From a virus, in IMG/VR virus record IMGVR_UViG_3300015242_000023, positions 1,802 through 65,801 of that record: a DNA stretch of 64,000 bases; one strand, written 5' to 3'. This document shows, piece after piece, positions 4,478 through 38,853 of the stretch. The position numbers were made by a program, and so were the translations under genes. The notes under the pieces were generated by a model. That model ran no database searches, was not told the origin of the DNA, and worked only from the letters and a program-made list of their open reading frames with translations. Within the stretch, counting starts at the first letter, position 1; every line of letters begins with the position of its first letter.

Positions 4478-4980
4478 TGCCTTCGCTGCTTGCGCTGGAT
4501 TGCTCGACGCACGTCGGCTGGAGCCTTTGGGCTTCAGCCGAGAAGCCGGTCAAATTCGGCACATGGCACGCCCCAAAGACTTGGGCGGTCGATGCCTATG
4601 GACGCCGGCTCAAAGCATTCCATGATTGGTTGTGCGATCATATCACCCGGTATCAGCCGGACATGTTGGCCTTTGAAAGCCCCGTTCTTCCTCGAGCCGG
4701 CATGAAGGACATGAAGACCACCGAGGACACCATGCGGCTTCTGATCGGGCTGGTAGCTGTGGCCGAATTGGTGGCGGAATTGCGCGGGCTGCGGTGCTTC
4801 GAGGTTCATGGCAGCACCGTCAAGGTAGCACTCGCCGGCACGTCGCGCTTCCCCAGCACAGAGAAGAACAGGATCATGGTGTCAGCAGCACATGCCCGCA
4901 ACTTCATGGTGGCCGATGGACATCAAGCCGACTCCTGCGGCGTCGGTCTTGTGGTCTATGACATGCTGTCCGACTCTTAA
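4477..4980 (+). CDS. RuvC-like Holliday junction resolvase
   Basis: N-terminal LLALDCSTHVGW, central AFESP, C-terminal HQADSCGV: RuvC acidic-residue layout. Confidence 0.75.
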   Translation: MPSLLALDCSTHVGWSLWASAEKPVKFGTWHAPKTWAVDAYGRRLKAFHDWLCDHITRYQPDMLAFESPVLPRAGMKDMKTTEDTMRLLIGLVAVAELVAELRGLRCFEVHGSTVKVALAGTSRFPSTEKNRIMVSAAHARNFMVADGHQADSCGVGLVVYDMLSDS

Positions 4981-4994
4981 AGAGGTGCGGGGGA

Positions 4995-6161
4995 ATGACA
5001 GTCAGAAATTTAACAGGCGAAGTCCGCGCGAAGTTGGCAGAGTTGCCGGACGAGAGCATCGACATCGTCGTGACATCGCCGCCTTACTGGGGTCTGCGTT
5101 CGTATTTGCCGGACGACCATCCCGACAAGCATATGGAGATCGGGCTCGAGCCGACGTTGGGCGCGCACTTGGATACCCTGGTGGCCGTCTTCCGCGAAAT
5201 GCGCCGGGTGATGAAGCCCGATGCGCCGTTCTGGCTCAACTATGGCGACTGCTACGCCACCGCGCCCAACGGTCGATCGGCCGCGGCAACGAAGGCAGCA
5301 GGCAAGGACGACCGCACGTTCCGAGATAAACCGTTCTCGACGGTGGGGCCGATTTATCAAGTCGATGACTCTCCGAGAAACCAAAGCCGCCGCGGGCGCG
5401 CGGGAAACCTCGGGAATGGCGGAGTCAACGGCGCCGGAATCCCCAACGGCCGCGTCGTCGCGGGCGGTTACCTGAAGTCCAAGGACCTGTGCCTGATCCC
5501 GTTCCGCCTCGCCATCGCCCTGCAGGAAGATGGCTGGTGGGTCCGCTCGCGCTGCATGTGGGGGAAGCCTAACGGCATGCCGGACAGCTCGGGAAAATAC
5601 CGGCCGAGCGTGGCGCACGAGGAAATCTTCCTGCTCAGCAAGAGCGGTGATCTGTTCTACGACGCCGAGGCTGTGAGCGCACCGGTGAGCGGGTCGACGC
5701 ATGCCCGCGTGTCCCATAACGTCGCGGCGCAGATTGGCAGCACCAGAGCCAACGGCGGCCGGAAGACCAACGACAATATGAAGGCCGTCGTCCGCAAGCG
5801 CGCGGCGCCCGGCAAGGGCATCAAGAACAACGAGAGCATGGACGATGCGCTGTCGATCATGCCCGACACCCGCTACCTGCGCACCTACGAGCCCGAGGTC
5901 TGGCACATCGCAACTGCGGCCTATGCCGAGGCGCACTTCGCCACCTTCCCGCCCGCGCTGGTCGAACGCTGCCTGATGGCCGGATTGCCCAAAGGGCGCC
6001 GCTGCGTCGTGCTCGACCCTTTCGGCGGCGCCGGCACCGTCGGCCTAGTCGCCGATCGCATGGGCCACGACGCTATTCTGATCGATCTGAACCCCGATTA
6101 TACCGTCATGGCGCGGCACCGCGTGAAGGATGATGCGCCTCTCTTTGTGGAGCTGGCCTAG
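4995..6161 (+). CDS. Beta-class N4-cytosine/N6-adenine DNA methyltransferase
   Basis: Catalytic motif IV VTSPPYW near the N-terminus, HFATFP, SAM-binding motif I VLDPFGGAGT near the C-terminus. Confidence 0.92.
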   Translation: MTVRNLTGEVRAKLAELPDESIDIVVTSPPYWGLRSYLPDDHPDKHMEIGLEPTLGAHLDTLVAVFREMRRVMKPDAPFWLNYGDCYATAPNGRSAAATKAAGKDDRTFRDKPFSTVGPIYQVDDSPRNQSRRGRAGNLGNGGVNGAGIPNGRVVAGGYLKSKDLCLIPFRLAIALQEDGWWVRSRCMWGKPNGMPDSSGKYRPSVAHEEIFLLSKSGDLFYDAEAVSAPVSGSTHARVSHNVAAQIGSTRANGGRKTNDNMKAVVRKRAAPGKGIKNNESMDDALSIMPDTRYLRTYEPEVWHIATAAYAEAHFATFPPALVERCLMAGLPKGRRCVVLDPFGGAGTVGLVADRMGHDAILIDLNPDYTVMARHRVKDDAPLFVELA

Positions 6162-6164
6162 GCC

Positions 6165-7487
6165 CTACTTCCGCACCCTGGTCCCAGATGCGCCATTGTA
6201 GGTCGCGACGTGGTTATCCTTGACCTCAGTGTTGCTGGGCGCCGGCACGTTGGCTGGCGCGTCCAAGATGAACTTGCTCAGACCCGAGCTCGGCAGACCG
6301 AAGTTGTTCACAGGGATATCCCCCGTGGACATCTCGTTGGCGTAGATCACCGTCCCATAGCCGGGGCCGTCCAACTTGAAGAGGCTCTGGCCTGTGTTCT
6401 CGCCATTGTTGAAGGCGCCCACCCGGAGCCCCTGCGGCGCATAGATGCCGTACTGACTGTTCTGGATGAACGAGCCCATGATGATGTTGTGGCTGTAGCC
6501 GGTGTTGATTCCGGACCCGCCGTTGCGGCTCATGTTCGGAGCGATGCCGAAGACGTTGGACATGATCGCCCCGCCTAGGCTCTGGGCCAGCATGCCGTCC
6601 TTGCGCATGTTTTCGGCGTGCAGGTTGATGTGGCTGAACTCAAACACCGCGCCTTCAAAAATGAAACCGTATTCGGCATAGCTCGTGTAGATGTTCTGGA
6701 GGGTCGGCTTGTAGATATCCATGGCCGTGCCGCCTTGGGCCCGGATGCGGAGGCAGGCGCCGGCCGGGGGCCGATCATAGCCGCCGCCGTACAGTTGGAA
6801 GTTCATCAGGACGAAACCGCGGTTGGCAACGCCGGTCACGCCTTCAAAGCGGAACATGTCCTGACCGCCGGCGCCCACCCAGTTGATCTGCGCCCAACTG
6901 CCGTCGATGCCCCACACCTCGCCGCCGTGTTCGGTCTGGCGGAAGACGATGGTCTGGTCGATGTCGATCACCGTGCCAGGCGCCAGCGTGATCACCGTCC
7001 GGGTCGATGCTGCGGCATTGGCCAGCGCCTGCAACTGTGGCGTGGTCGTGGGCTTAGGCAACATGCCGCCCATAATGTTGATCACCGTTCCCCCGCCGCC
7101 CGTGCCGGGGACGCCTTGGATGCCCTGATCGCCCTTGTCCCCCTTCGGACCAGCCGCTCCGGTAGCTCCGGGCGCGCCCTGAATGCCTTGCAGCCCCGCG
7201 TGGCCCTGAGCCCCCGCCGGTCCCGTCGGCCCCTGTGGGCCCGTTCCTGAGCCGCCAGTGCCGCTTCCTGCCGGACCCTGCGGTCCCTGTGGCCCGGTCA
7301 CTCCCTGTGGACCCTGCGGACCGGGAGGTCCCTGCGTGCCGCCGCCGGGCGGCGGCTCTACCTCGGGCGAGTCCACCGTGTAGGTCCCCAGATCATCCCA
7401 TCCGTCTCCCCGCAGAAAGAACAACATCGACGCCGTTTCCGTGTTCAGCACCGTCTTGCCGTTGATGATCAGCTTGACAGTGGTCAT
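6165..7487 (-). CDS. Collagen-repeat protein with predicted right-handed beta-helix (tailspike/depolymerase-like) domain
   Basis: GPQ/GAQ triplets, then [14 protein letters not shown] and Asn/Gly-rich periodic strands; RBS GAGGAG. Confidence 0.65.
7105..7345 (-). repeat. Collagen-like Gly-X-Y coding repeat (GPQ type)
   Basis: [22 protein letters not shown]... in translation; approximate bounds. Confidence 0.8.
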
Positions 7488-7602
7488 CGGCGTAGCTCCT
7501 CGTTGGGGGCCTCACTATAACCTGTGCATGGCTCGGTGAATATCGGGGACAACCGACCAGGCACGAGGCCGTTGCGCGACCGAAGCAATAAGCATATTAT
7601 TG

Positions 7603-7633
7603 AAACAACAAACGGCCCCCGCGAGGGAGCCGT
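7603..7633 (-). terminator. Intrinsic terminator
   Basis: - strand ACGGCTCCC-TCGC-GGGGGCCGT followed by TTGTTGTTT. Confidence 0.7.
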
Positions 7634-7992
7634 CTGAGTGCTGAAGGACCTTGACGGGTCCAGAAAGCAGTTGGGATGTAGCCGCATCCCGTGGAGCGAA
7701 GATAATCGCTCCCGGTGTCCGAGACAACCCAATCCGTCTGTTGGTTATTTGCGTCCGGCTATCTTTACCGAGGTGAAAGCCCTCGGGTTTGTCGGCCTTC
7801 CAGTGGTTGCCGTCCTGCACGCTGGATTATGCCATGGGGAGCGGGGATCTTCGGGTTCTGGGCCTACGGGCTTCCATGGGAGAAGTGGCGCAAGTGGATC
7901 ATGAGGGGCCTGCGGGTTGGGTGCCATGCCTTATCCACAGTCAGCTTGGGTTGCGGGCAATCACTAAATGCCCCGCTCCCAAGAAATCAATC

Positions 7993-8400
7993 ATGGTCAG
8001 ATTCATGAGCATCCTCTCTTGGATAGAGAGGATGCGGGCGGGAGCAATTGAAATGGGCAGGTTTCATCGCAAGATAAGGATACTGGCGAAAACCGAATGG
8101 CCGGTATTTGTGCGAATGCACGAGACGGATAATCCCATACCTGTTGACCCGCGCTCGTTTTATCCGTGGGCATTGGCTCAACCAAAGCCAGAGCGGTACA
8201 GGCTGTTCGCTGTGTTTCGGGAGTTCGTCATGTCCGAGCGATACTCGCGAACGGTGATGGCGGAAGGCGCGTATTACCATAGCCTTGATGGAGTCGTGAC
8301 GCGCCCGGTGCCTGATGTATCGATCAAGAATGCGCGTCGGAACATCGAAAATATCGACCAGTTTCGCGCAAGCAGGCCACTTGGAGGGAGCCATGGCTAA
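7993..8400 (+). CDS. Hypothetical protein
   Basis: ORF translationally coupled to the next gene; start uncertain (7993 or 8005). Confidence 0.5.
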   Translation: MVRFMSILSWIERMRAGAIEMGRFHRKIRILAKTEWPVFVRMHETDNPIPVDPRSFYPWALAQPKPERYRLFAVFREFVMSERYSRTVMAEGAYYHSLDGVVTRPVPDVSIKNARRNIENIDQFRASRPLGGSHG

Positions 8401-8830
8401 AAACGAGAAGACGAGCGCGCGCGTTGCGAAGATCGCGGCCAAGGTACTGGCGGTGGACATCAATCAGTTTCCCGATCAACCGCACTCGCCGATCAATCCG
8501 GCGCATGTGGATGTCATGGTGCTAATTGGGCAGTCGCATTCGACGGGCTTGAAGTGGTCCGACATCCGCGCACTCGCCGCCTCGGCGCTCACCCAGACGC
8601 CGGACAAGCGCGATATCGAAGCCGCTCGAAAGTATCTCTACAACGACCTCGGATTCGATCCGCGCGACGGCGGAAAGGTTGGTCGAGCGACGCACAACGC
8701 AATGGGCGATCGCATCAAGCCGAGGAAGATTCTGCCGCCCAAGGCCAAGTGTGTCTTGTCGGCGCGCATCAAGTCGAAGCGCCCGAGCTCATGGCCGCCA
8801 TCGGCTAAACCGGGAAGGAACTCACCGTGA
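8393..8830 (+). CDS. Hypothetical phage protein
   Basis: GGAGGGAG RBS; MAKNEKTSARVAKIAAKVL... Confidence 0.65.
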   Translation: MAKNEKTSARVAKIAAKVLAVDINQFPDQPHSPINPAHVDVMVLIGQSHSTGLKWSDIRALAASALTQTPDKRDIEAARKYLYNDLGFDPRDGGKVGRATHNAMGDRIKPRKILPPKAKCVLSARIKSKRPSSWPPSAKPGRNSP

Positions 8831-9036
8831 CGCCCTATGATCTGATCGACATAGAGGTTTGGCTCCATCATGAAAGTCACGCAGGAAACGAGAACGCCGG
8901 CGCCTATCTGGTGTCCACGGATCACAAACACAAAACCTGGGTGCCCAAAGTGGCCTGCCAGTTGGAACTGACCAATGGCAACCGTGGTACGCTCACTCTG
9001 ACAGAAAACTTGGCGGTCGAGCGAGGTTTGGTGTGA
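8827..9036 (+). CDS. Small hypothetical phage protein
   Basis: GTGA overlaps at both ends. Confidence 0.6.
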   Translation: MTPYDLIDIEVWLHHESHAGNENAGAYLVSTDHKHKTWVPKVACQLELTNGNRGTLTLTENLAVERGLV

Positions 9037-9917
9037 TGGCCAAGAATGCCCCAACACTATTTGCCGATGAAGAACTGGCCCCAATGCCGGAAAAGCTCTG
9101 CACCGATGCCCTGGCGGTGTGGAACGAGATTGCACCGGGCGCCAGTTGGCCAGAAGCCCGGTTCCTGACGCAATCCCGGCGGACGGCGATGCGGAGGGCC
9201 ATAAAAGACTATGGCGGCTTGGTGGGCTGGAAAGAGCACTTAGCGAGGGCCGCGACCAGCGACTTCCTGACCGGGAAATCCCCCCGCGGCGAGCAGCACA
9301 AGGACTGGCGCCCCGATCTGGACTGGTTCTTGAAACCGGCCAATGTGGTGAAAATCCTTGAAAACAAATTCAGCGGCAAAGGACCGGCCAAATCGTCGGT
9401 ATTCGCGAACGCCAAGCCGCAGGGCATCGACTGGCGCGGGACGCTCGAAAGGTACAAGCCTCGAGGCTTCTGGCACAAGGACACGATGGGGCCGCGGCCA
9501 GAAGAGTCAGGCCCGCACAAGGTCCCAGCCGATATGATCGAGGCGTGGCGAAAGAAGCATGGCATCACGGGCGTGCAGGCCCCGACTGAGACCCGCGAGC
9601 AGCGGCTGGCGGCGTCGATCGCCACGTTCCGCCGTCTAGGGGATTACGCGCGGGCAAATGCGGCAGAGGAGCAACTGGCGGCGCTCCAGGGACGGCCGCC
9701 CGAGCTGGTCCCAGCTCCCGACGCTCGCAACCCTGATGTAGTACCTCCCAAGATGCCGTCTAATAAGGGTTATTCTGGCCACACTGCCAAAAACGGCGGA
9801 AATTATTCCAAATCTATGCAGCGATCCGAGGCCGAGATAACCCGCGCCATGGCCGCCGCTCAGGACGCGGCGTGGGAAGATATACCCGAGGGCGAAAACT
9901 ACGGGCGCGACGAGTGA
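9033..9917 (+). CDS. Phage replication initiator-like protein
   Basis: DFLTGK...DWRPDLDWFLKPANVVKILENKF resembles the conserved W-x-x-D-x-D-W...N...K-x-L-E domain of phage replisome organisers. Confidence 0.6.
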   Translation: MMAKNAPTLFADEELAPMPEKLCTDALAVWNEIAPGASWPEARFLTQSRRTAMRRAIKDYGGLVGWKEHLARAATSDFLTGKSPRGEQHKDWRPDLDWFLKPANVVKILENKFSGKGPAKSSVFANAKPQGIDWRGTLERYKPRGFWHKDTMGPRPEESGPHKVPADMIEAWRKKHGITGVQAPTETREQRLAASIATFRRLGDYARANAAEEQLAALQGRPPELVPAPDARNPDVVPPKMPSNKGYSGHTAKNGGNYSKSMQRSEAEITRAMAAAQDAAWEDIPEGENYGRDE

Positions 9918-10543
9918 AGCCGCTGGATCGCTCGATGTTTCAAGCCTACCGAATTAGCAGCCTGATCGACGGCAAGGTGTATATCGGCATCACGTCGCGC
10001 TCGCTAAAGGCGAGGTGGGCCGAGCATCTCTATGAATCGCGTCGGAATCGTTCTCGGATGACGGTAACTTGGGCGATCGCCAAGCACGGCGCCGACAATT
10101 TCCGCATTGAGCCGATTTGTTGCGCGCGCTCATGGGATGACATATGCGCAGCCGAACAGGCGCTCATCGAGCAACATGGCTGCACCGCGCCCGCTGGTTA
10201 CAATCTGCGGAAAGGCGGCGATGGTGCCTTCGGCCGCAAGCCAACTGCCGAGGCCATAGAGCGATCGGCAGCAAAGCACCGTGGCCTTCCGTGCCATCCC
10301 AACACGCGATCTGCATCGTCGCGCACTCACAAGGGCGTCAAGAAATCCCCTGCGCATCGTGCTCGGATTGCTGCGGCCAGGCGAGGCATAGCCAGGAGCG
10401 AAGAGACTAAGGAAAAGCTGCGAGCCTATTGGGCCGCACGTAGGGCTGCGGGCGAGTTCAAAACGGCCAAGCCATACGCTCACGCCAAAATCCCGCTAGC
10501 GCTCAGCCAACATATCGCAGCGACCTACCGGCCGCGCTTCTAG
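9914..10543 (+). CDS. GIY-YIG homing endonuclease with NUMOD3-like repeats
   Basis: AYRISSLIDGKVYIGIT, GYN motif, C-terminal KSPAHRARI / RSEETKEKL repeats. Confidence 0.85.
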   Translation: MKPLDRSMFQAYRISSLIDGKVYIGITSRSLKARWAEHLYESRRNRSRMTVTWAIAKHGADNFRIEPICCARSWDDICAAEQALIEQHGCTAPAGYNLRKGGDGAFGRKPTAEAIERSAAKHRGLPCHPNTRSASSRTHKGVKKSPAHRARIAAARRGIARSEETKEKLRAYWAARRAAGEFKTAKPYAHAKIPLALSQHIAATYRPRF

Positions 10544-10863
10544 GACCAGATACTATCCGCCAGATTATTCAGCCGCCGGGCTTCGGCGCGCACGAGCTCG
10601 GCGACTTCGACCATCACGGATTCGGGCAGGAGATTGTAGCCCGTCTCCCATCGCCGGATGTTGCGCCTGGTGACCTTGAGTGCGACCGCCATTTGGTTGT
10701 GCCATTCTTCGCCGAAGATGGCACGCCCGGCGATGGCGAACAGGGCGCGGCGGCCGTTGTTGTTGAGGCGAACCGACGTGTCCTTGGGAATGACCATGAT
10801 CTCCAGATGATCCGGCGTGTTGTCGAGCGGATCACCATAGGTGTGGTGCACAACTTTCGTCAC
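10540..10863 (-). CDS. HTH-domain protein
   Basis: C-terminal WHNQMAVALKVTRRNIRRWETG helix-turn-helix; GTG start inferred from overlap. Confidence 0.6.
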   Translation of the reverse strand: MTKVVHHTYGDPLDNTPDHLEIMVIPKDTSVRLNNNGRRALFAIAGRAIFGEEWHNQMAVALKVTRRNIRRWETGYNLLPESVMVEVAELVRAEARRLNNLADSIWS

Positions 10864-10951
10864 AGCGCAGCCCAAGTGAGCGCCGTCCAGAAAGCCACCG
10901 ATATCAGGCACACGATGAGAACCGTGAAGTAATTGCCCGGATATCCCATGG

Positions 10952-11173
10952 TCATTCTCCCAACCCTGCGGCTTCGGCCTGGGCAAGCGCCTTCTGAGCG
11001 GCATCCTGCGCGATGAGCAGGCTCGCGAAGTTGGGAGGCTGACCAGTGACACGCCAATCTGCGATCAACGCGACGTAATTGGTCAGCGCGGCACGCATAG
11101 CGCGGGCTGCAGCCTCCGCTGCGTCTAGCTTGTGGGCTAGTTCCAGCATGTAGGCGTCATTTCCATTTCTCAT
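10952..11173 (-). CDS. Hypothetical protein
   Basis: Helical Ala-rich ORF within a run of overlapping small - strand genes. Confidence 0.45.
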   Translation of the reverse strand: MRNGNDAYMLELAHKLDAAEAAARAMRAALTNYVALIADWRVTGQPPNFASLLIAQDAAQKALAQAEAAGLGE

Positions 11174-11336
11174 GACACGGTGATCCGGTAGACGTCGCCC
11201 TTGAACAGCGGGCGGTCGATCCGGACACGCCAGCCATCCCGGCGGTAAATGGCCCGGAGGCGGTTCGCCAAGGTGGCGGCTTCCAAGTAGGTGTTGCGTG
11301 TGAAGTTCATCAGATGCTCCTGTGGTTAGTCTTTTG

Positions 11337-11546: not shown

Positions 11547-11602
11547 TGCGGTGGCCCTTCTCTGCCTGTGCTGGTCGGGCCTGTGCCCGTCCTGTGGATT
11601 GA

Positions 11603-11668
11603 GAAATACAGCTTGGTGAAATTATTGTCAACGGGGTCTTGCAATCTTTTTTAAGATTGGTGTAGGTT
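11603..11668. promoter_or_regulatory. Divergent promoters with palindromic operator
   Basis: - strand TTGACA (11626-31) N17 TATTTC (11603-08); + strand TTGCAA (11639-44); perfect inverted repeat CAATCTT-TTTT-AAGATTG at 11642-11659. Confidence 0.65.
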
Positions 11669-12099: not shown

Positions 12100-12434
12100 A
12101 ACACCTACGCGGTTTCATCAACGGGGCTTGGCCCGGAATCCTCGGCGGTCTGGTCGGTGGCGTTGTTGCCTTCTGTCTATCCAGTTGCCCAACCCGCGCT
12201 CAGACGATGTGCCAGAACCTCGGCGACGGCTTCACGTCCTGCACCAACGGCGCGAGCTCGCAGCGACTCGGCGAATTCGACTTCAATTCGGATGGCAGTT
12301 GGGGCATGCGCCTCGGCGGCGGGATGTATCTGGCCAATCCGCCCGCGAACCCGCGCGCCGATGCGCCAGCGGTTCCGATCATCCCCGAGCCGCAGCCCTT
12401 TGAAGTCTGGCGGCAGCGCGGAACCAGAAAGTGA
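12096..12434 (+). CDS. Secreted/membrane-anchored hypothetical protein
   Basis: N-terminal hydrophobic segment, then QTMCQNLGDGFTSCTNG beta-hairpin-like repeats. Confidence 0.55.
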   Translation: MKHLRGFINGAWPGILGGLVGGVVAFCLSSCPTRAQTMCQNLGDGFTSCTNGASSQRLGEFDFNSDGSWGMRLGGGMYLANPPANPRADAPAVPIIPEPQPFEVWRQRGTRK

Positions 12435-12715
12435 CGGGCATCCTCTGTCCCACATGCAACGGGCCCCATCACACGGTGACCAAAACCAACGCCTATGGGG
12501 AATTTTTTCGGCGCCTCAGACACTGCGCGGATTGCGATCTGGATTTCACGACCTACGAAGCTGCAGGGCGGCCGGGCGGCCGGTTCATGAAGGCAGTTCA
12601 CCTGCACCGGACACTCCAGGCTATGTCGCCGATTCGGCGTCAGATCGTAGAGAACCTAATCGAAGAACTAACGCCGGCTTCGGCTACGGTCATCAATTTT
12701 GGAGAGGAAGAATGA
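12431..12715 (+). CDS. NrdR-like zinc-ribbon protein (no ATP cone)
   Basis: CPTC...RRLRHCADCDLDFTTYE matches the NrdR N-terminal pattern. Confidence 0.7.
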   Translation: MTGILCPTCNGPHHTVTKTNAYGEFFRRLRHCADCDLDFTTYEAAGRPGGRFMKAVHLHRTLQAMSPIRRQIVENLIEELTPASATVINFGEEE

Positions 12716-12909
12716 GCCACATGCGCGTCTGGAGCAACGGAAGCACCCTCTATTTCGCTGGCCAATTCTCGGCCGACGATGCCGCGTTCATTGAGCCGTT
12801 GGCCTTCCAATATGGCATGTCTCGTCCTGAGCAAGCGCACCAGCAGGCCACTAAACTCGCATGGGCGTTCAAGAGCATTTGCGAGCGCGTTGCCAAGGAC
12901 ACCAAATGA
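12712..12909 (+). CDS. Hypothetical protein
   Basis: RBS GGAGAGG; ATGA overlaps. Confidence 0.5.
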   Translation: MSHMRVWSNGSTLYFAGQFSADDAAFIEPLAFQYGMSRPEQAHQQATKLAWAFKSICERVAKDTK

Positions 12910-14177
12910 ACGACATCTTTCAGCCCCCCGCCTACAACGATACGCCGCTCAGCCAGCCACCGACGGACGGCCGTATACAGACGCCGCAGATGGGGGCCCA
13001 GCAACTAACCCAGATCGGGGCGAACGCGGCCAAAAACGGCCTAGTCGACGTGGCTCGCGTCGCATTCACGCGCGCCGTGAGAGAGGAGCGACGTGGCGAT
13101 ACCCTGGCAAACTTGGCCAACGCACTGCGGCAGCTTTGGCGGTTCGACGAGGCCAACAAGATCATCGATGAAGCGCTTCAATTCGCGCCCCAGGACGGCC
13201 GGGTGTGGGGCATCAAGGGCGTCACCATGCTGGACCAGAACCGGTCAACGGACGCCATCGCCGCCTTTCGAAACTCGCTGATGTGGGGCGGCGCCGCTCC
13301 CTTTACCAAGTTCGGCTTGGCTGAGGCGCAGCTCCATGCCGGCGACTTCGACCGCGGCCTGAGGGGCTACGAATCCCGGTTTGAGATAAACTCGCCTCGC
13401 CTTCATGGCCTCCCCCGGTGGCAGGGAGAACCATTGGGCGACAAGGTGCTGCTGGTCGAGGCCGAACAAGGCTTTGGCGACACTTTCATGTTTAGCCGCT
13501 TCCTGCCTCGCATCCCAGGGAACTATATCTTCAGCGTCCAAGCGCAGGCAGTGAGTCTGTTCGGACCGGAGGCGAAGCGGCTGGGCGAAGCAGTGCGCGC
13601 TGATTACTGGTGCCCTCTCATGAGTCTACCGCTGATCGTCGGCACCGACATCACGCCCGCGCTGGCTTTCCGGCCTAACCGCATCCTGCCGCTGACGGCG
13701 CGCGGCAAATTCAACATCGGCATTGTCTGGGCATCCAAGGCAGGAGGGTCCGGCACTCCCGAAGAAATGCGCCACGGCCTGCAGAAGTCATGCCCGATCG
13801 AGGCCTTCCTTGATCTTTGCGACATCGACGGCGTCCAACTGCACAGCCTGCAGTACGATCAGGATGCCAGCCTGATGACGATGGACCTCGTTAACCAACT
13901 TCCCCAATACGACTTCCGCGACCAGGCCGCGCACATGCTCAACATGGACCTGATCATCAGCGTGGACACCGCACCGCTGCATCTGGCCGGGACGCTCGGG
14001 CGTCCGTGCATCGCGCTGTTGAACGTGGTTGGAAGCTGGCAATGGGGTTCTGGAGATACCACGCCTTGGTACAAATCAGTCCGGATCGTGCGGCAGCCAA
14101 AGCCGTTTGACTGGTCCGGAGCGATGGCCAAAGCGAAGGATATCGTGGTCGAGATGATGGGGGAGCACAAGCCATGA
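12906..14177 (+). CDS. TPR-containing GT-B (GT9/heptosyltransferase-like) glycosyltransferase
   Basis: N-terminal TPR helices; EAEQGFGDTFMFSRF and DLIISVDTAPLHLAGTLGRP motifs. Confidence 0.85.
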   Translation: MNDIFQPPAYNDTPLSQPPTDGRIQTPQMGAQQLTQIGANAAKNGLVDVARVAFTRAVREERRGDTLANLANALRQLWRFDEANKIIDEALQFAPQDGRVWGIKGVTMLDQNRSTDAIAAFRNSLMWGGAAPFTKFGLAEAQLHAGDFDRGLRGYESRFEINSPRLHGLPRWQGEPLGDKVLLVEAEQGFGDTFMFSRFLPRIPGNYIFSVQAQAVSLFGPEAKRLGEAVRADYWCPLMSLPLIVGTDITPALAFRPNRILPLTARGKFNIGIVWASKAGGSGTPEEMRHGLQKSCPIEAFLDLCDIDGVQLHSLQYDQDASLMTMDLVNQLPQYDFRDQAAHMLNMDLIISVDTAPLHLAGTLGRPCIALLNVVGSWQWGSGDTTPWYKSVRIVRQPKPFDWSGAMAKAKDIVVEMMGEHKP

Positions 14178-14368
14178 CCGAGAATGAAGCCAAGACCAAG
14201 CATTGCTGCGGGCCAGAGGGCACTGGAAGCAAAGGGCCTCCAGACAACGACGGCACATGCGATCGTTACTGCATCGGCTCTGCCTGCATGGCATGGCGTG
14301 TGAAGAGACTCCCTGATGGCGATCAGTACGGCTTCTGCGGGCTCGTAGGTCTGGCAGGCAAGCCATGA
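14174..14368 (+). CDS. Small Cys-rich hypothetical protein
   Basis: CC...C..YCIGSACMAW...GFCGL. Confidence 0.55.
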   Translation: MTENEAKTKHCCGPEGTGSKGPPDNDGTCDRYCIGSACMAWRVKRLPDGDQYGFCGLVGLAGKP

Positions 14369-14580
14369 TCGGCGGCATCACCGAGCCGCCGCGCCGTTAT
14401 CTCGAACATGAATGGCATTGGCTTCACAGCGAGCGCGCATCCCGACCGGTGATCTCACAATGGATCAAGGGCGGTTGGTATAGCCCGGGTGAGCACGGCC
14501 CGATTTCCCCGCAGGAGATGTGGCGCCGCGGTTGGGCCTATCTGGGGCCTGTTCCAGTACCGCCAGGAGATTGGGGATGA
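14365..14580 (+). CDS. Trp-rich hypothetical protein
   Basis: ATGA overlaps at both ends. Confidence 0.5.
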   Translation: MIGGITEPPRRYLEHEWHWLHSERASRPVISQWIKGGWYSPGEHGPISPQEMWRRGWAYLGPVPVPPGDWG

Positions 14581-15863
14581 TCGATTTCAGCAACGCGCGC
14601 GTCGCCGTCGTGGGCGACCTGATCGAGGACCATTGGATTTACGGCCGCGTCGATCGGCTGTCGCCCGAGGGGCCGTGGCCAGTGTTCCTGCCGGAGCGAA
14701 CGGTCGTGCAGATGGGCGGCGCGGCGAATGTGGCCGCCAACATGTACGCGCTGGGTGTGACGCCAGTGCAGATCGCCCCGAACCGAATGGCGATCAAGGA
14801 ACGCTATGTCGTCGGCCGGCACCAGATGTTCCGCGTCGACCGGGAAAACACATCGAACATTTCGAGCCAGGAGATGATCCGCCTATTCATCGCTCTCACG
14901 GAGGGCACCCAACAGCCGAATGTCGTGGTGCTGAGCGATTACGGGAAAGGCTGCTTTGGTGGCACCTTGGCGCAGTGCATCATTGAATGGTGCATGCCCC
15001 GCGGCATCGTCACCGTCGTCGATCCTAAGGGAACCGATTGGACCAAGTACGACGGTGCCACCGTCATTACGCCGAACTATGCCGAGTGGAAGGCCCATCA
15101 GCGCGGCGGCCGCGCGCGTCTGCTCGTGACCAAGGGTGAGCACGGCATAGAACTGCAGGGTGATGGCAGCGACGGCAGGCATTGGATCAACATCCCCGCT
15201 GCCGGCCCGAAGGTGGTCGATATCGTCGGCGCCGGCGACGTGGTCGTTGCTGCGCTCGCCCTGGCGTTGGGTGCAGGCTATTCCATGGAAGAAGCAGCCC
15301 GCATCGCCAACGCCGCAGCCGGTGTCGCCGTAGGCAAGCCCGGCACGTCTGTGTGCACGATCGACGAACTGAGAGGTGCTTGGGTAAGCGGGTGTAGCTC
15401 AGCGGTAGAGCAGCGGTCTCCAAAACCGACGACGGGGGTTCGAGTCCCTCCGCCCGCGCCACTCGTTGGAATCGCCAACGGCTGTTTCGACACCCTGCAT
15501 GCCGGCCACGTCGAGCTCCTGCAGAAGGCAAGGGCGCGCTGCGACCGACTGATAGTCGCCATCAATAGCGATGCATCGACGCGACACCTAAAGGGCCCTC
15601 TGCGGCCGGTAAATCCAATGGCTGTGCGCTGCGCCATGCTCCAGGCATTGGCATGCGTCGGTGAGGTCCGCGTCTACGATCAGGAGGAGGATCTGGTCGA
15701 CATCATCAAGGAGGTAGGGGCCTCGGTGATCTTCAAGGGCGTCGACTACGAGGGCCACCCCACCATCACCGGCAGCGATATCGCCCGCGTCGAGATCATC
15801 AAGACCGAGTTCAAATCGTCCACCGCGCAGGAAGTCTGCAAGGCTCGAGGAGTTTGGTCTTGA
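14577..15863 (+). CDS. hldE: Bifunctional heptose-7-phosphate kinase / heptose-1-phosphate adenylyltransferase
   Basis: PfkB kinase motifs (VVGD, RLSPEGP, GGAANVAAN, LSDYGKG, VDPKG, TPN, GAGD) fused to a nucleotidyltransferase (NGCFDTLHAGH, INSDAS, KGVDY). Confidence 0.9.
   Translation: MIDFSNARVAVVGDLIEDHWIYGRVDRLSPEGPWPVFLPERTVVQMGGAANVAANMYALGVTPVQIAPNRMAIKERYVVGRHQMFRVDRENTSNISSQEMIRLFIALTEGTQQPNVVVLSDYGKGCFGGTLAQCIIEWCMPRGIVTVVDPKGTDWTKYDGATVITPNYAEWKAHQRGGRARLLVTKGEHGIELQGDGSDGRHWINIPAAGPKVVDIVGAGDVVVAALALALGAGYSMEEAARIANAAAGVAVGKPGTSVCTIDELRGAWVSGCSSAVEQRSPKPTTGVRVPPPAPLVGIANGCFDTLHAGHVELLQKARARCDRLIVAINSDASTRHLKGPLRPVNPMAVRCAMLQALACVGEVRVYDQEEDLVDIIKEVGASVIFKGVDYEGHPTITGSDIARVEIIKTEFKSSTAQEVCKARGVWS
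15388..15461 (+). tRNA. trnW: tRNA-Trp(CCA), nested in frame inside hldE
   Basis: Acceptor GCGGGTG/CGCCCGC, D arm GCTC-AGCGGTA-GAGC, anticodon loop CTCCAAA, T arm GGGGG-TTCGAGT-CCCTC, G73 discriminator, encoded CCA. Confidence 0.9.
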
Positions 15864-16060
15864 ATCTGATGGAAGGACTGGCGCGACAGTTAGTGCGAGT
15901 TGCCAAGGCCCGGCGGCACTATGAGGACATCGGGCCGAGCGGCGCATTCGGGCTGATGATGATCGATCGAGCCCTTGAGATGGCATGTGTGGCTGCGGGC
16001 AGCAATGACATTGTCGAGATGATGCGCGCTCACGAGGACCTAAAAGGCATCAGCGAATGA
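15854..16060 (+). CDS. Hypothetical protein
   Basis: RBS GAGGAG; coupled to hldD. Confidence 0.55.
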   Translation: MVLNLMEGLARQLVRVAKARRHYEDIGPSGAFGLMMIDRALEMACVAAGSNDIVEMMRAHEDLKGISE

Positions 16061-16860
16061 TCATTTGCACCGGAGTGTCCGGATTCATCGGACGCCATCT
16101 GACCAAAGCGCTCAATGCTGATTGGGTTCCGGGCCAAGTGCCTCTTTTGCGCGAGGCGGACGCGCTGATCCATCTCGGCGGCATATCCGATACCACATGC
16201 AAGGACGAGCAACGGCTGATCGAGGCGAATGTGAAGCTGACGTTGGAACTCGCCGACTCGGCCGCCGACGCTGGAATTCCGTTCATCTATGCGAGCAGCG
16301 CCAGCATTTACGGAAATGGACGCGGACCGCTCAATGCCTACGCCCGATCGAAGGCGGCGATTGATGCCTCCATGGCGAACCGATCGGACGAATGGTATGG
16401 GCTGCGGCTCTTCAATGTCTACGGCGACGGTGAGGGCAAGAAGGGCGACCAGGCCAGCATGGTCTACAAGGCCGTCTGGTCGCATCGGAATGGCAAGACG
16501 CCCGAATTTTTCACACCGAAAGCGCGCCGCGATTATGTCCACGTCAGCGACGTCGTGAAGGTGATCCTGTGGTTCGTGCGCACTTGCCCACGGAGTGGCG
16601 TCTATGACGTCGGGACTGGCGAATCGACATCGATCAAGGAAGTCTGCGATCTGGCTCAAGACATATCGCCATTCATTAGACGGATGGCGGCGACCGAGAT
16701 GAGGGGAATGTACAAGCATCCGTCTCTCACCGAAATACCCGTGCCGTCGCACATGTTCTGCGCCTGCCAGATGGACACCAAGGCCGATCTCACCCGGCTG
16801 CGCAGCATCGGCTATGACGCACCGTTTCTGTCTCTCGAGGAAGGAATCAAACTGCTATGA
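16057..16860 (+). CDS. hldD: ADP-L-glycero-D-manno-heptose 6-epimerase-like NAD-dependent epimerase
   Basis: TGVSGFIG Rossmann motif, HLGGISDTT, YASSASIYG, YARSK, LRLFNVYG, KGDQASMV, RDYVHVSDV. Confidence 0.85.
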   Translation: MIICTGVSGFIGRHLTKALNADWVPGQVPLLREADALIHLGGISDTTCKDEQRLIEANVKLTLELADSAADAGIPFIYASSASIYGNGRGPLNAYARSKAAIDASMANRSDEWYGLRLFNVYGDGEGKKGDQASMVYKAVWSHRNGKTPEFFTPKARRDYVHVSDVVKVILWFVRTCPRSGVYDVGTGESTSIKEVCDLAQDISPFIRRMAATEMRGMYKHPSLTEIPVPSHMFCACQMDTKADLTRLRSIGYDAPFLSLEEGIKLL

Positions 16861-17030
16861 AATCGTCCGGAACTGTCATGGGCGGCATGCGCCTGCCCAA
16901 GGATCTGGCAGCCCACCGCAGCAGCAAGCTCATCAAGAGCGCCATCGGTTCCTCCCGAGTGAAGCGCGAATCGCAGATCAAGGACGCCATCGCCATCGAT
17001 TTCACGAAGCGACCGAAGGTGAAGAAATGA
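16857..17030 (+). CDS. Small basic hypothetical protein (57 aa, not in supplied track)
   Basis: ATGA overlaps with both neighbours; MKSSGTVMGGMRLPKD...RPKVKK. Confidence 0.5.
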   Translation: MKSSGTVMGGMRLPKDLAAHRSSKLIKSAIGSSRVKRESQIKDAIAIDFTKRPKVKK

Positions 17031-17140
17031 CCGACCGCAAACCGAGACGAGTGCCGTGGGTGAAGGATTGGCTGCTGTTTGTAGCACTTCCAGTTGGGAC
17101 CATCTTGATCATCGCCATCGTCCACAGCGTGCTGAAATGA
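17027..17140 (+). CDS. Single-pass membrane peptide
   Basis: MTDRKPRRVPWVKDWLLFVALPVGTILIIAIVHSVLK; overlaps both neighbours. Confidence 0.5.
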   Translation: MTDRKPRRVPWVKDWLLFVALPVGTILIIAIVHSVLK

Positions 17141-17955
17141 ACTACCCCCCGCCCACTGACGTTCGCATCCTGGAAGGCGAGGAGGAGGCCAAGACCATCG
17201 CCTATGTCCGCAACCTCATCGCGCAGAAGCCCAAGGTTCGCGACGTCTCCCACTGGGAACGCGGGTGGAAGCAAAATCTCGATGCGTACATGGCGTCGCG
17301 CGATCCAGACGATCTGATGCCAATGTACATCCGCCCGGCCCTGCCGCTGCGCTGCAATGGTCACTTCGTCATGCCAGATGATCCATTCTGCGAATGGAAG
17401 TGGTATCGGAAGTTCCTCGAATATATCTCTGACCGATGGCTCGCCGACAGCGGCAACATTTTAGAAATCGGCTGCGGATCTGGGCACAATCTCGCATGGC
17501 TCAAGACGCGCTATCCCGAAAAGAGCATATTCGGCTGGGATTGGTCCCCCAGCGCCGTGGCGATCGCAGACGCGGTATCCGACGGGGGTTCCAAGTTCAA
17601 TATGCTCCAGCCGCCACCTGCTACCCCGCTCATCCTGAGCACCACCACCATTCTGACCGTCGGCGCGATGGAGCAGACCGGCACAGGATGGGGACCTCTC
17701 CTCGCATGGCTGCTCGTCACCAAGCCCAAGCGCGTCGTCCATATCGAACCGGTGCTGGACTTTTATGACCCCGGCGACCCAGTGGATCAGACGGCGATTG
17801 AAGCCCATATCGCCCGCGGTTTCTGGACCGGATATCTCGAGACTCTCATTGAGCTCGCGGACGAAGGGTGCATTGAGATCGAGGACATGGAGCGATCCTG
17901 GTTTGGGTCGCTCTTAACTGAAGGATATAGCCAGATCGTGTGGAAGCCGCTGTGA
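17137..17955 (+). CDS. Class I SAM-dependent methyltransferase
   Basis: ILEIGCGSG motif I, GWDWSPSAV motif II. Confidence 0.8.
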   Translation: MNYPPPTDVRILEGEEEAKTIAYVRNLIAQKPKVRDVSHWERGWKQNLDAYMASRDPDDLMPMYIRPALPLRCNGHFVMPDDPFCEWKWYRKFLEYISDRWLADSGNILEIGCGSGHNLAWLKTRYPEKSIFGWDWSPSAVAIADAVSDGGSKFNMLQPPPATPLILSTTTILTVGAMEQTGTGWGPLLAWLLVTKPKRVVHIEPVLDFYDPGDPVDQTAIEAHIARGFWTGYLETLIELADEGCIEIEDMERSWFGSLLTEGYSQIVWKPL

Positions 17956-18152
17956 GTGAGCGAATTACCTTCACAATGACGGACGGCACGGTGCGTGAGT
18001 TCAAGCATCTCGGACGGCCCGGAGGCTCATATACGGTTCGCCTGACTTTCGAGGGGGAATTCGCCATCGTCACAGATGAATGGGGGGACAGAACGGTTAT
18101 TCCGGCCCACCTCATCTCAGAGATCAAAGAGACCGAAGGGCGGCGTTGGTGA
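17952..18152 (+). CDS. Small hypothetical protein
   Basis: GTGA overlaps. Confidence 0.5.
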   Translation: MSERITFTMTDGTVREFKHLGRPGGSYTVRLTFEGEFAIVTDEWGDRTVIPAHLISEIKETEGRRW

Positions 18153-18874
18153 AAACCATCATCTACCAGCAGGTCTTCCTCCGCGATGCCGCCCAAGCCC
18201 GTCTATTCGGCGTCAGCCACGCCCTAATCCGCAGGCTCAACCCCGATGCCCACACCCTGGTCATCGACAACGGCAGCGAGATAGACCCGTGGGAATACGC
18301 CCAGCCAGATCTCTACTTTCGCTTCCCAGAGCGAATCGGCCATTTCTTCCACGACTTCCATGGGATGCCTGACGGATCGGTGCCGCGCGACGGACCAGGG
18401 CGAGCTCACTGCATGGCGATGCAGATCGCAATGGAAGCGGGATACGATCGGGCGGTCTACATCGAAGCCGATGCCCTCTTTGCCAAGCCCGTCGAGTGGG
18501 GCTTCGCGCAGATGACGACGCCAGTCGCCTGCCAGCCTGCGTGCATGTATTACAAACTGGATTGGCACGTCGTCTGGTTTCGGGACCTGAAATGGCTGAA
18601 GACTTTCGACTTTCCCGGGCGATACGATTGGCAAAACCGCACGGGAGAGCCCGGCGGCGAACCGGCCGGCGAAGTCATCTGGCACCAGATCCTAGGCGAC
18701 AACGTAGCCTCGCTGCCCGTCCGCGGGACACGCGGCGAATCAATCAGCCTCGACGAGAACAACTATTGGATGTTCTATCCGGATGGCTGCGATTTGGTGA
18801 CCCACGTCAGTACAGCAACCTGCGCGCACTTCCTCAAGATGAACGGCCATCCGGACCTAGCCGACCGCCTATAG
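18149..18874 (+). CDS. GT-A/GT2-like glycosyltransferase
   Basis: LVIDNGS and YIEADALF (DxD-like) motifs. Confidence 0.65.
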   Translation: MKTIIYQQVFLRDAAQARLFGVSHALIRRLNPDAHTLVIDNGSEIDPWEYAQPDLYFRFPERIGHFFHDFHGMPDGSVPRDGPGRAHCMAMQIAMEAGYDRAVYIEADALFAKPVEWGFAQMTTPVACQPACMYYKLDWHVVWFRDLKWLKTFDFPGRYDWQNRTGEPGGEPAGEVIWHQILGDNVASLPVRGTRGESISLDENNYWMFYPDGCDLVTHVSTATCAHFLKMNGHPDLADRL

Positions 18875-20050
18875 CGCGATGATCTTGCTCATCACCATGG
18901 TCGGCTGAACCGTGGATATGTTGTTTACTCCGTTCGAGGTCACGCCGAATGCGTGAGTGTGATTGTTTGTAGCCGCTTGGAAATCTCCACCATTATTGAC
19001 GCCAGAATTGCTGTTGCCGACGTTTGTGGTGCTCGTGCCAGTAACGGTGATGAAGATACCATTCGACTGCAATCCACCCGTGGCGCCCGCAGTCGCACTG
19101 GCCATAGAATTAAGCCTATCTGCACTCGCGACACCTCCATTCGTATCCATGCCAGCGACGATCATGCCGCGCAGGTCCGGAAGGGCAATCGTCTTGTTCG
19201 CGGCAAAGTCCGCTGCCGCGTTGGCGCCGCGCCCTCCCGACACCGCAGCCTGGCCATTCGCCCACGAGTTCCACAGCAAGGTGTAAAGAGGCAGTGTGTC
19301 GACGTTGGCGCGTCCAGTGGCAGCGGATGCCGCGCTGCCGATAGTCGTGCCATTGGCGAAGACATAACCCGTGGGCACAGTCGTCCCGATATAGTCGAAG
19401 ACCAAGCCGGTGATCGGCGCCGCCGTCCGTTGCACGGTGGCATCCGGAAAGATGAAACCGCCCGTCGTGCTCGTAATGAGTCCACTGGCGCTGATTGGCC
19501 CGCTCGCACTGATTGATCCCGTCACCCCAAGAGCCCCAGTTGGGCTGGTCGCGCTCACGGTGGTCCAAGTCAAGCCGCCAGTAGCGCCCAACACACCAGT
19601 GGCGTTGTACTGGATTTGTCCGGTCGCGCCGGCCGCGATCGCCGGTTCAGTGATCGACTTGCGCATGCCGCTTGCGCTGCCATCACATGACACGATGACG
19701 GAGAGCCCTGCCGCCACGGTGATCGTGGAACCGCCTGCTCCGGACTTGATGCCTACCGTCTGACCGCCTGCGGTGCCGTTCAGGAATACCCACTGGCCGC
19801 CGACGCCAGACGGGACGACGTAGGTGATGGTGCCGGTGGGAGTGCCCGAGATCAGCAGCGACAATGGCCGGTACTGGGTTGCGGTCAGCGCCGTGTCGCC
19901 CGACAGGCCGGTAGAGTTCAGAAGGGACGAGCCGCCGAAAGCCGTATCGATTTGGGACCAGTCCGTGTTTACAGGGGTCTCCCACGAATTTACGAAATCT
20001 CCGTGCGCAGGCTGCTCCAGACTCTTATTTTGAGTGAACGTTGAAACCAT
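18869..20050 (-). CDS. Tail fibre/needle-associated protein with tail-collar-like domain
   Basis: GLVFDYIGTTVPTGYVFANG...PDLRGM...NISTVQPTMVMSKII pattern; Gly/Thr/Ser rich. Confidence 0.75.
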   Translation of the reverse strand: MVSTFTQNKSLEQPAHGDFVNSWETPVNTDWSQIDTAFGGSSLLNSTGLSGDTALTATQYRPLSLLISGTPTGTITYVVPSGVGGQWVFLNGTAGGQTVGIKSGAGGSTITVAAGLSVIVSCDGSASGMRKSITEPAIAAGATGQIQYNATGVLGATGGLTWTTVSATSPTGALGVTGSISASGPISASGLITSTTGGFIFPDATVQRTAAPITGLVFDYIGTTVPTGYVFANGTTIGSAASAATGRANVDTLPLYTLLWNSWANGQAAVSGGRGANAAADFAANKTIALPDLRGMIVAGMDTNGGVASADRLNSMASATAGATGGLQSNGIFITVTGTSTTNVGNSNSGVNNGGDFQAATNNHTHAFGVTSNGVNNISTVQPTMVMSKIIAL

Positions 20051-36827: not shown

Positions 36828-36829
36828 GA

Positions 36830-37563: not shown

Positions 37564-37564
<1 letters not shown>
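36830..37564 (-). CDS. LamG/concanavalin-A-like lectin-domain virion protein
   Basis: VWLDARN motif, beta-sandwich composition, located between two fibre genes. Confidence 0.55.

Positions 37565-38853
<1,289 letters not shown>

Follow-up and report, generated by a model that had tools for sequence, protein, structure and literature searches.

To our knowledge, glycosylation of virions has been established experimentally in only a few actinobacteriophages, in which it alters antibody recognition, and protein heptosylation is known only for enterobacterial autotransporters. In the mycobacteriophages Che8, Corndog and Myrna, cytoplasmic glycosyltransferases (GTs) encoded by the phage reportedly act together with methyltransferases to decorate capsid and tail proteins, as Freeman et al. 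are said to have described in 2023. The enzymes of autotransporter heptosylation, TibC and Aah of the BAHT family, O-heptosylate protein in the cytoplasm from ADP-heptose, the product of a pathway comprising GmhA, HldE (or HldA plus HldC), GmhB and HldD. In Caulobacter crescentus, flagellin is modified by FlmG, a 596-residue protein with a tetratricopeptide repeat (TPR) domain and a GT-B domain (eLife paper), which is a soluble flagellin O-glycosyltransferase whose TPR domain binds flagellin and whose GT-B domain cannot (PMC7591256); exchange of its GT-B domain changes the donor from pseudaminic to legionaminic acid (bioRxiv 10.1101/2022.03.25.485807). Here we describe a stretch of 64,000 nucleotides of DNA from an uncultured phage (hereafter the window, whose positions we use throughout), corresponding to bases 1802-65801 of the 69,807-bp IMG/VR virus record IMGVR_UViG_3300015242_000023, which is rated 100% complete by CheckV. 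An operon at 12906-18874 on the + strand of this window combines a FlmG-like TPR glycosyltransferase (TPR-GT) with enzymes resembling HldE and HldD.

We propose that this operon encodes a cytoplasmic, ADP-heptose-fed protein O-glycosylation system that acts on virion proteins, a reading on which we are almost evenly divided, with a slight lean towards doubt. More tentative still is the fuller proposal that a phage lineage took over a FlmG-type GT with a GT9 domain and, with phage ADP-heptose, extension by a GT of the GT-A fold and methylation, O-heptosylates its own virion proteins, while the operon DNA doubles as a tRNA-Trp gene and the linker of HldE. HldE genes in phages, the glycosylation of phage virions, FlmG and the heptosylation of proteins have each been known on their own; in the full-text literature searched, neither virion heptosylation nor a phage protein glycosyltransferase of the FlmG-like or GT9 kind was found to be described.

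The TPR-GT is 423 residues long and matches two Pfam families above their gathering scores, TPR_2 (32.9 bits) and PF01075 (30.8 bits; gathering score 22), the latter match being limited to profile positions 165-228 of 247, the C-lobe motif region. An AlphaFold2 (AF2) model built from 38 homologues (pLDDT 91.7) comprises four TPRs at residues 31-161 and a GT-B domain at about 174-423, has no transmembrane segment, and shows an acceptor (N) lobe that is reduced to three strands and capped by the TPRs. Two motifs, EQGxGD and DxxxxxD-T-x-P-x-H-L, are invariant in the family. When the TPR-GT was compared with the PDB using Foldseek, TPR-containing GT41 enzymes (SPINDLY and OGT) ranked first with poor superposition, and TPR matches likewise dominated a PDB profile search made with the whole TPR-GT alignment. 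An exhaustive structural scan with residues ~174-423 returned 3tov (Z 15.2), WaaF (1psw, Z 14.9), TibC (4rap, Z 14.2) and WaaC (2h1f, Z 14.0), and these GT9 enzymes superposed with a root-mean-square deviation of 3.0-3.4 over 219-231 residues.

Among models of reviewed Swiss-Prot proteins, the top match was FlbA of Caulobacter vibrioides (P21296, 596 residues; Foldseek E 6.9e-22, TM-score 0.64, 22% identity), with SPY/OGT (E 1e-9) and WaaC (E 1e-5) far behind. FlbA is the older name of FlmG. The sequence-only reading of this DNA had anticipated a TPR-bearing transferase that acts on protein, and the identity of this best match, a protein whose TPRs bind the protein acceptor, bears that expectation out. 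Like FlmG, the phage enzyme is predicted to be a soluble protein with N-terminal TPRs and a C-terminal GT-B domain, and would share its modular division of labour, in which the TPRs bind the acceptor and the GT-B domain selects the donor. Unlike FlmG, it has 423 rather than 596 residues and only four TPRs, is encoded by a phage, and is linked to HldE and HldD rather than to pseudaminic or legionaminic acid synthesis. On the basis of the model, the reading that best suits the TPR-GT is that of a modular glycosyltransferase of proteins whose catalytic domain is of the GT9 type. For protein heptosylation, its nearest functional analogy is the BAHT enzymes, with which it shares the GT9 fold; unlike in these enzymes, acceptor recognition would be by TPRs and not by a dodecameric ring, and the phage has no autotransporter substrate. 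No CxxC-type cysteine cluster such as that of the BAHT iron finger could be read in the 423-residue sequence.

The same catalytic fold, together with the PF01075 match and a presumed ADP-heptose donor, is shared with the lipopolysaccharide (LPS) heptosyltransferases WaaC and WaaF and with 3tov (Z 14-15 over ~220-230 residues). The phage protein differs from these enzymes in lacking phmmer similarity to them, in its reduced acceptor lobe and added TPRs, and in scoring far under the cut-offs of the LPS heptosyltransferase equivalogs (TIGR02193, 19.2 bits against 185.3; TIGR02201, 16.6 against 170.2; RfaQ, 15.3 against 467). By sequence, therefore, the TPR-GT is not an LPS heptosyltransferase. 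Because its acceptor lobe is reduced, TPRs have been added and its scores fall so far below the equivalogs, it is unlikely to bind Kdo2-lipid A.

These features bear on the remodelling of host LPS for superinfection exclusion, an alternative that had been raised from the outset. In its wider form, the cluster would modify LPS or some other glycan of the host envelope, for instance with an extra or methylated heptose, and so alter receptors to exclude superinfection or to reduce trapping of progeny on debris. GT9 enzymes are classically LPS core heptosyltransferases, and the split HldE genes of cyanomyophages are annotated as LPS-related. The TPR-capped, three-stranded N lobe and the 15-19 bits obtained with the NCBIfam WaaC, WaaF and WaaQ models (cut-offs 170-467) speak against such a role, as does the genomic evidence: a tyrosine integrase was not found in the phage (serine recombinases were not searched for), and no Gtr-type membrane protein or other membrane component was recognised among the open reading frames (ORFs) scanned in and around the operon. 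A search of 185,579 bacterial species genomes for the TPR-GT yielded no close copy, the best match being 36% identical, which argues against a lysogenic-conversion cassette. Envelope remodelling for superinfection exclusion is weakened accordingly, and we consider it quite improbable. Lysogenic conversion as such was rejected on the missing tyrosine integrase, within the same limit on serine recombinases. Phage-borne HldE-type genes are also found in T4-like cyanophages (S-CAM1, S-T4, P-SSM2 and others), at ~31-35% identity; the split form of these genes occurs in two relatives of the present phage as well, whereas in the cyanophages they have not been reported together with a FlmG-like TPR-GT.

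We then turn to the donor. The HldE-like protein (428 residues) carries the Pfam PfkB and CTP_transf_like domains in a single polypeptide and matches NF008454 across both domains (274.8 bits; cut-off 521) as well as the single-domain models TIGR02198 (228 bits; cut-off 345) and TIGR02199 (105.6 bits; cut-off 181.5). In an alignment with two bacterial HldE proteins, the kinase motif GAGD and the nucleotidyltransferase motifs NGCFDxxHxGH and NxDxS are invariant, and a block of ~30 residues is deleted from the kinase domain. The HldD-like protein is likewise short (267 residues against ~310), with ~40 residues of the Rossmann region missing after GxxGxxG; its match to TIGR02197 (182.4 bits; cut-off 274.6) covers profile positions 65-307 and leaves 1-64 unmatched, and the motifs GxxGxxG (TGVSGFIG) and YxxxK (YARSK) can be read from the sequence. 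Its ESM Atlas model is closest to four bacterial HldD clusters (TM-score 0.87-0.90), alongside many viral clusters of similarly short proteins. The two enzymes thus belong to the HldE and HldD lineages as shortened versions of a phage type, and by the NCBI criteria they are not equivalogs. The names hldE and hldD, which the sequence-only reading had used, are therefore not supported in the sense of equivalogs, and the exact nucleotide sugar is not established by them; since both enzymes are trimmed and fall below the NCBIfam cut-offs, ADP-L,D-heptose is their probable rather than demonstrated product.

Neither gmhA (TIGR00441) nor gmhB (TIGR00213) had been recognised in the window before, and our check of the rest of the genome extends this result: neither model matched anywhere in the complete 69,807-bp sequence, as expected if the pathway depends on GmhA and GmhB of the host. 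The phage thus encodes only two of the four enzymes of the ADP-L-glycero-beta-D-manno-heptose pathway, a kinase/adenylyltransferase fusion and a 6-epimerase homologue that keep their catalytic motifs and differ from their bacterial counterparts in being trimmed, in scoring below the equivalog cut-offs and in having a tRNA gene in the hldE linker. NeuB/PseI and a CMP-sugar synthetase were not found in the phage, so that HldE and HldD are the only donor-forming nucleotide-sugar enzymes found in it. On the same grounds, a phage-made CMP-nonulosonic donor (pseudaminic or legionaminic acid) was rejected, although the host could still supply one; the linked pathway is that of HldE and HldD.

The donor might nonetheless be a sugar nucleotide other than ADP-L-glycero-D-manno-heptose, such as ADP-D,D-heptose or a tailored or different ADP-sugar, in which case the operon would still be a glycosylation system and heptosylation a misnomer. 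The shortened enzymes with their sub-equivalog scores are consistent with this, as are the variable donor specificity of FlmG-class GT domains (bioRxiv 10.1101/2022.03.25.485807) and the transketolase, short-chain dehydrogenase/reductase (SDR), PhyH dioxygenase and TylF/FkbM enzymes that relatives add to the module. The best family matches are, however, specifically to HldE and HldD and not to other PfkB kinases or epimerases, the nearest structural clusters of the epimerase are those of HldD, and the HldE-like protein has its nearest homologues among bacterial HldE proteins, thousands of which share 35-40% identity with it. We therefore give a different sugar a real but minor chance.

Heptose supply by a phage can also serve DNA. 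Mono- and di-heptosyl-5-hydroxymethylcytosine have been reconstituted with a phage GT-B enzyme, a kinase-like enzyme and a nucleotidyltransferase (Pyle et al., bioRxiv 10.1101/2023.12.21.572611), an operon content that resembles the one described here, and the sugar could by analogy be placed on phage DNA as a base hypermodification. That system needs a cytosine methyltransferase and a TET-like oxidase, and the GT in it lacks TPRs and is similar to T4 beta-GT, whereas the present enzyme carries TPRs and resembles FlmG. The complete genome has no C5-cytosine methyltransferase and no thymidylate-synthase-like (ThyA-like) hydroxymethylase; a TET/JBP dioxygenase was not matched either, a weak negative given that the TET control gave no match anywhere. 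With none of these genes found, DNA hypermodification was rejected as the main explanation, and we regard it as very improbable.

An unusual feature of the hldE-like gene is a tRNA-Trp (CCA) at 15388-15461, which lies in frame on the coding strand and was found by Rfam (RF00005, 66.8 bits, E 3e-13) and ARAGORN alike. The closest fused HldE relative (P0123, locus L177; 405 residues, 64% identity in the alignment) lacks the ~24 residues that the tRNA encodes, and the bacterial HldE linker at this position is similar in length to that of the phage. Because the frame offers no start codon from the end of the tRNA to the HxGH motif, the adenylyltransferase domain can arise only if ribosomes read across the tRNA. 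This stretch of DNA thus appears to have two roles, as a tRNA-Trp gene and as the coding sequence of the HldE interdomain linker. L008, a close relative, has a gene of the tRNA-His guanylyltransferase (Thg1-like) family at 3903-4712 that is flanked by a TPR-GT homologue and an HldE kinase, with identities of 64% and 62%, respectively.

The five genes that had been named initially (TPR-GT9, hldE, hldD, an S-adenosylmethionine (SAM) methyltransferase and a GT2-like gene) all lie on the + strand within 12906-18874 and form one translationally coupled operon, as had been claimed. The coupling reaches upstream to at least 12431: there are 14 ORFs on the + strand from an NrdR-type zinc-ribbon gene at this position to the stop at 18874, and neighbouring ORFs overlap by 4 nt (ATGA or GTGA), the sole exception being a 6-nt gap after hldE (15863 to 15869). 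This chain of genes, in which neither signal peptides nor membrane GTs were recognised, supports a cytoplasmic system. Six to seven small ORFs of the operon had not been named in the initial reading; two of the ORFs are shorter than 60 residues and absent from the ORF list (16856-17030 and 17027-17140). The features of this run, and a further GT gene in the head module, are as follows.

12431-12715, + strand: NrdR-type zinc-ribbon protein, 94 residues (Pfam PF22811, 29.6 bits); its stop overlaps the start of the next ORF
12712-12909, + strand: small ORF, 65 residues, without family match; its stop at 12909 overlaps the ATG of the TPR-GT at 12906
12906-14177, + strand: FlmG-like TPR-GT, 423 residues (Pfam TPR_2 and PF01075; AF2 model)
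14174-14368, + strand: cysteine-rich small ORF, 64 residues, without family match; ATGA overlap on both sides
14365-14580, + strand: small ORF, 71 residues, without family match; ATGA overlaps with both neighbours
14577-15863, + strand: fused HldE-like protein with a minimised kinase domain, 428 residues (NF008454; PfkB and CTP_transf_like); AGGAG 8 nt before the ATG
15388-15461, + strand: tRNA-Trp (CCA), in frame in the hldE linker, codons 271-295 (ARAGORN; Rfam RF00005)
15869-16060, + strand: small ORF, 63 residues, starting 6 nt past the hldE stop; ATGA overlap with the hldD-like start
16057-16860, + strand: short HldD-like epimerase, 267 residues (TIGR02197; Atlas model)
16856-17030, + strand: small basic ORF, 57 residues, without family match; ATGA overlaps at both ends
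17027-17140, + strand: hydrophobic, transmembrane-like ORF, 37 residues; ATGA overlaps at both ends
17137-17955, + strand: class I SAM methyltransferase, 272 residues (Methyltransf_25 and Methyltransf_23)
17952-18152, + strand: small ORF, 66 residues, without family match; GTGA overlaps at both ends
18149-18874, + strand: phage-specific GT of predicted GT-A fold, 241 residues (Atlas model), starting at GTG 18149
40395-42305, - strand: GT2-GT2-TPR glycosyltransferase in the head module (Pfam GT2 and TPR; PHROG glycosyltransferase families)

Some of the small ORFs recur elsewhere. In the related contig L013, a homologue at 72-341, 38% identical to the cysteine-rich ORF at 14174-14368, immediately precedes the GT-A gene; this ORF could encode a small protein that binds metal and works with the glycosyltransferases. 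The contig that carries the closest fused HldE has an 82-residue ORF at the position equivalent to 15869-16060. At its downstream end, the last stop of the operon (18874) overlaps the stop of a convergent tail gene (18869) by 6 nt, which leaves no space for an intergenic terminator.

The last gene of the operon had been called GT2-like. The name holds at the level of fold and for a DxD-like motif, and fails at the level of family: PF00535, the Pfam GT2 family, did not match, nor did any other Pfam family even at E 0.5. Its Atlas model has a GT-A fold with TM-scores of 0.66-0.71 to GT8 and GT2 clusters, and its own cluster and nearest neighbours are viral. D40 (IDNxS), E106-x-D108 (ExD) and a C-terminal H219 (TH) are invariant in 10 of 10 phage homologues. 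The methyltransferase probably starts at ATG 17137, and this gene starts at GTG 18149; the corresponding ESM Atlas entries begin at the same residues. The AF2 model of the methyltransferase (pLDDT 84.7) matched DnrK, CouO, BpumL and Rv2258c in Foldseek, all of them generic class I enzymes acting on small molecules; this fold is compatible with sugar O-methylation and is not proof of it.

We asked how far this set of genes is conserved. An alignment-based scan of IMG/VR identified 169 viral contigs with a relative of the TPR-GT; scans with single proteins were less sensitive, returning no confirmed relative with the HldE query and only one distant locus with the TPR-GT query. None of 50,697 phage records was matched when the cluster was searched with Megablast, and only two of these records matched the TPR-GT, both weakly. 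Homologues 48-86% identical to the TPR-GT lie on contigs of 36-63 kb that share TerL and portal with this phage. For comparison of gene content we defined 15 close loci, L001-L003 plus L007-L019, of which L002 and L003 are nearly identical and count as one, whose TPR-GTs are 31-86% identical to the query. The GT-A gene adjoins the TPR-GT in 10 of the 15; parts of HldE lie within 10 kb of it in six, as a split kinase and nucleotidyltransferase in L009 and L010 and as a fused gene in L017 and L018; a short HldD-like gene is present in three, and a homologous methyltransferase also in three (L002/L003, L009 and L010). Neither GT-A nor HldE was found in any of 71 more distant loci. Since HldE-like proteins match only 58 of the 50,697 phage records, their association with the TPR-GT is far from chance. 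The TPR-GT and GT-A pair is thus a conserved module in two phage lineages, is often joined by HldE (split or fused), short HldD and methyltransferases of the sugar type, and in most cases immediately precedes the terminase genes.

The theme of methylation that had been suggested for this cluster recurs in these relatives: the methyltransferase homologues in L002, L009 and L010 are 39-47% identical and lie within the same module, and four members of the lineage carry either this methyltransferase or enzymes of the TylF/FkbM type. Other tailoring genes vary from one relative to the next. L009 has a PhyH-like dioxygenase after the small terminase gene. A split transketolase (N-terminal and pyrimidine-binding halves) and an SDR lie directly upstream of the TPR-GT homologue in L002 and L003 (6734-9994) and in L010 (7533-9989), and may supply sedoheptulose 7-phosphate or produce a differently tailored sugar. 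In the second lineage, the complete 41.9-kb genome L017 carries at 5216-11242 a fused HldE (416 residues), a PhyH-like dioxygenase, a TylF-type and an FkbM-type methyltransferase, an additional gene of unassigned function, GT-A and TPR-GT. The bacterial TPR-GT9 homologues checked (Variovorax, Burkholderia) are orphan genes with no sugar or flagellar context.

Position within the genome suggests a link to the virion. The module lies upstream of packaging and structural genes in L001, L002, L009 and L010, and directly before the small terminase gene in L001, L002 and L009. The GT2(-TPR) gene inside the head module, to which the sequence-only reading had drawn attention, also recurs in the second lineage, where homologues of the N-terminal GT2 domain of the GT2-GT2-TPR protein are found in L017-L019; in L017 this gene directly follows a 696-residue ORF without family match that we consider to be the portal. 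Modification of virion proteins is supported because the module abuts terminase and structural genes in relatives and because a GT2 gene sits inside the head module in two lineages.

The phage context that had been assumed for the operon is real: PHROG matches identify a portal (phrog_1216), a major head protein (phrog_371) and collagen-like tail fibres, and there is a tail protein at 18869-20050 and a TerL homologue of 925 residues at 54926-57703 (- strand), ~50% identical to the TerL genes of relatives. The structural genes run on the - strand from ~57.7 kb down to 18.9 kb, and the sugar operon converges on them from the + strand, in an early/middle unit that is preceded by a Cro-like gene and a promoter-like site at 11599-11628.

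This location also suits a different target, a host protein modified during infection. The substrate could be flagellin or pilin, with the effect of blocking superinfection or keeping progeny from adsorbing to doomed cells; it could also be a factor of the cytoplasm that is modified as part of host take-over. FlmG, the only characterised relative, glycosylates a host surface-filament protein in the cytoplasm (PMC7591256), the operon belongs to the early/middle unit, and no conserved virion acceptor was found. Against this stand the proximity of the module to terminase and structural genes in relatives, the further GT gene inside the head module, and the position of the bacterial homologues (~30% identity), which have no flagellin gene beside them in the two genomes whose sequence was inspected. 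Flagellin genes that had seemed to lie near the bacterial homologues in two genomes proved to be an artefact of contig numbering, as the stretches do not overlap. The resemblance to FlmG leads directly to a host-protein target such as flagellin, to which we give a low probability.

The search for a virion acceptor began with the threonine-rich collagen fibres that had been proposed as the substrate. The Gly-X-Thr fibres are real, with threonine in most Y positions of 35955-36911 and 37564-38853. When co-occurrence was checked, however, the proposed link found no support: five IMG/VR relatives with a TPR-GT, four of which have GT-A next to it and one of which is a complete 41.9-kb genome with fused HldE, two methyltransferases, GT-A, TPR-GT and a head-module GT2, contain no four consecutive G-x-T triplets. 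The module therefore does not depend on such fibres. Serine/threonine-rich fibre-like proteins, homologous to each other, adjoin the head-module GT2 in L018 and L019 and have a homologue in the complete relative; no homologue of these proteins was found in this phage. A third collagen-like protein, of the G-P-Q type (Pfam Collagen) with a C-terminal globular domain, is encoded at 6165-7487 (- strand) among early genes and away from the tail module.

From the gene content, folds, motifs, coupling, conserved synteny and lack of gmhA and gmhB described above, we infer a scheme in which the donor sugar, the order of the steps, sugar methylation and, above all, the acceptor are the conjectural parts. 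GmhA of the host would provide D-glycero-D-manno-heptose 7-phosphate, which the phage HldE-like enzyme would phosphorylate at C1. Once a phosphatase of the host, either GmhB or a different HAD enzyme, had acted, the HldE-like enzyme would adenylylate the product to ADP-D,D-heptose, and the short HldD-like enzyme would convert this to ADP-L,D-heptose. The FlmG-like enzyme would hold a protein acceptor with its four TPRs and transfer heptose to it from ADP-heptose with its GT9-fold domain; the GT-A partner would add or prime a second sugar, and the SAM methyltransferase would O-methylate the glycan. The most probable acceptors are structural proteins of the phage itself, either a single one or several; their folding and assembly take place in the cytoplasm where the enzymes would act. 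The idea that the phage builds a heptose-containing, possibly methylated glycan on its own particle, which was the core of the sequence-only reading, accordingly stands in part: there is a module for sugar activation and transfer, with a transferase that is probably protein-directed, the virion is the most probable target, and the link to the fibres is not supported.

Several observations weigh against glycosylation of virion proteins from ADP-heptose as set out in this scheme. With regard to the transferase, the GT domain gave no significant phmmer match to any solved GT9, and FlmG itself uses CMP-nonulosonic acids, from which it follows that the donor of the TPR-GT family is not fixed. With regard to the sugar, the HldE-like and HldD-like enzymes are trimmed and score below their cut-offs, and their product may differ from canonical L,D-heptose; some relatives, moreover, have a TPR-GT without HldE, or with the split transketolase and SDR instead. 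With regard to the target, the operon is part of the early/middle unit, which runs rightward, and the structural genes occupy the other strand, G-X-T fibres are not common to the TPR-GT-carrying relatives, no conserved virion acceptor was found among them, and no acceptor was identified in this phage. A prediction of the complex between TPR-GT and GT-A favoured neither side.

Some further features of these genomes deserve mention. The TerL homologues of two relatives, L001 (15491-18166) and L009 (14136-16949), contain intein domains (Intein_splicing, Hint and LAGLIDADG), and a radical-SAM-like protein (phrog_9298) is encoded near the right end of the window, at 62232-63101 (- strand). Hints to the host diverge: a near-identical fragment has been binned in a metagenome-assembled genome of Blastocatellia, and the nearest named bacterial HldE homologues include several from Alphaproteobacteria.

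Compared with the virion glycosylation reported for mycobacteriophages, the system proposed here is alike in relying on phage-encoded cytoplasmic GTs accompanied by methyltransferases, and unlike in that the mycobacteriophage enzymes are reportedly of the GT-A type, draw on hexose donors of the host and act in hosts of the Gram-positive type; neither a heptose supply nor a TPR-GT9 enzyme is known to us from that work. If our proposal is true, the operon would represent the first protein heptosylation outside the autotransporter (TibC/Aah) paradigm and the first heptose-based virion glycan. Confirmation would extend virion glycosylation and protein heptosylation to phages of (probably) Gram-negative hosts, and would provide both a defined set of enzymes and donor for the glyco-engineering of phage particles and a test case for how TPR-GT enzymes choose donor and acceptor. 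More broadly, hldE-type genes of phages, which are often annotated as LPS genes, may serve protein glycosylation instead.

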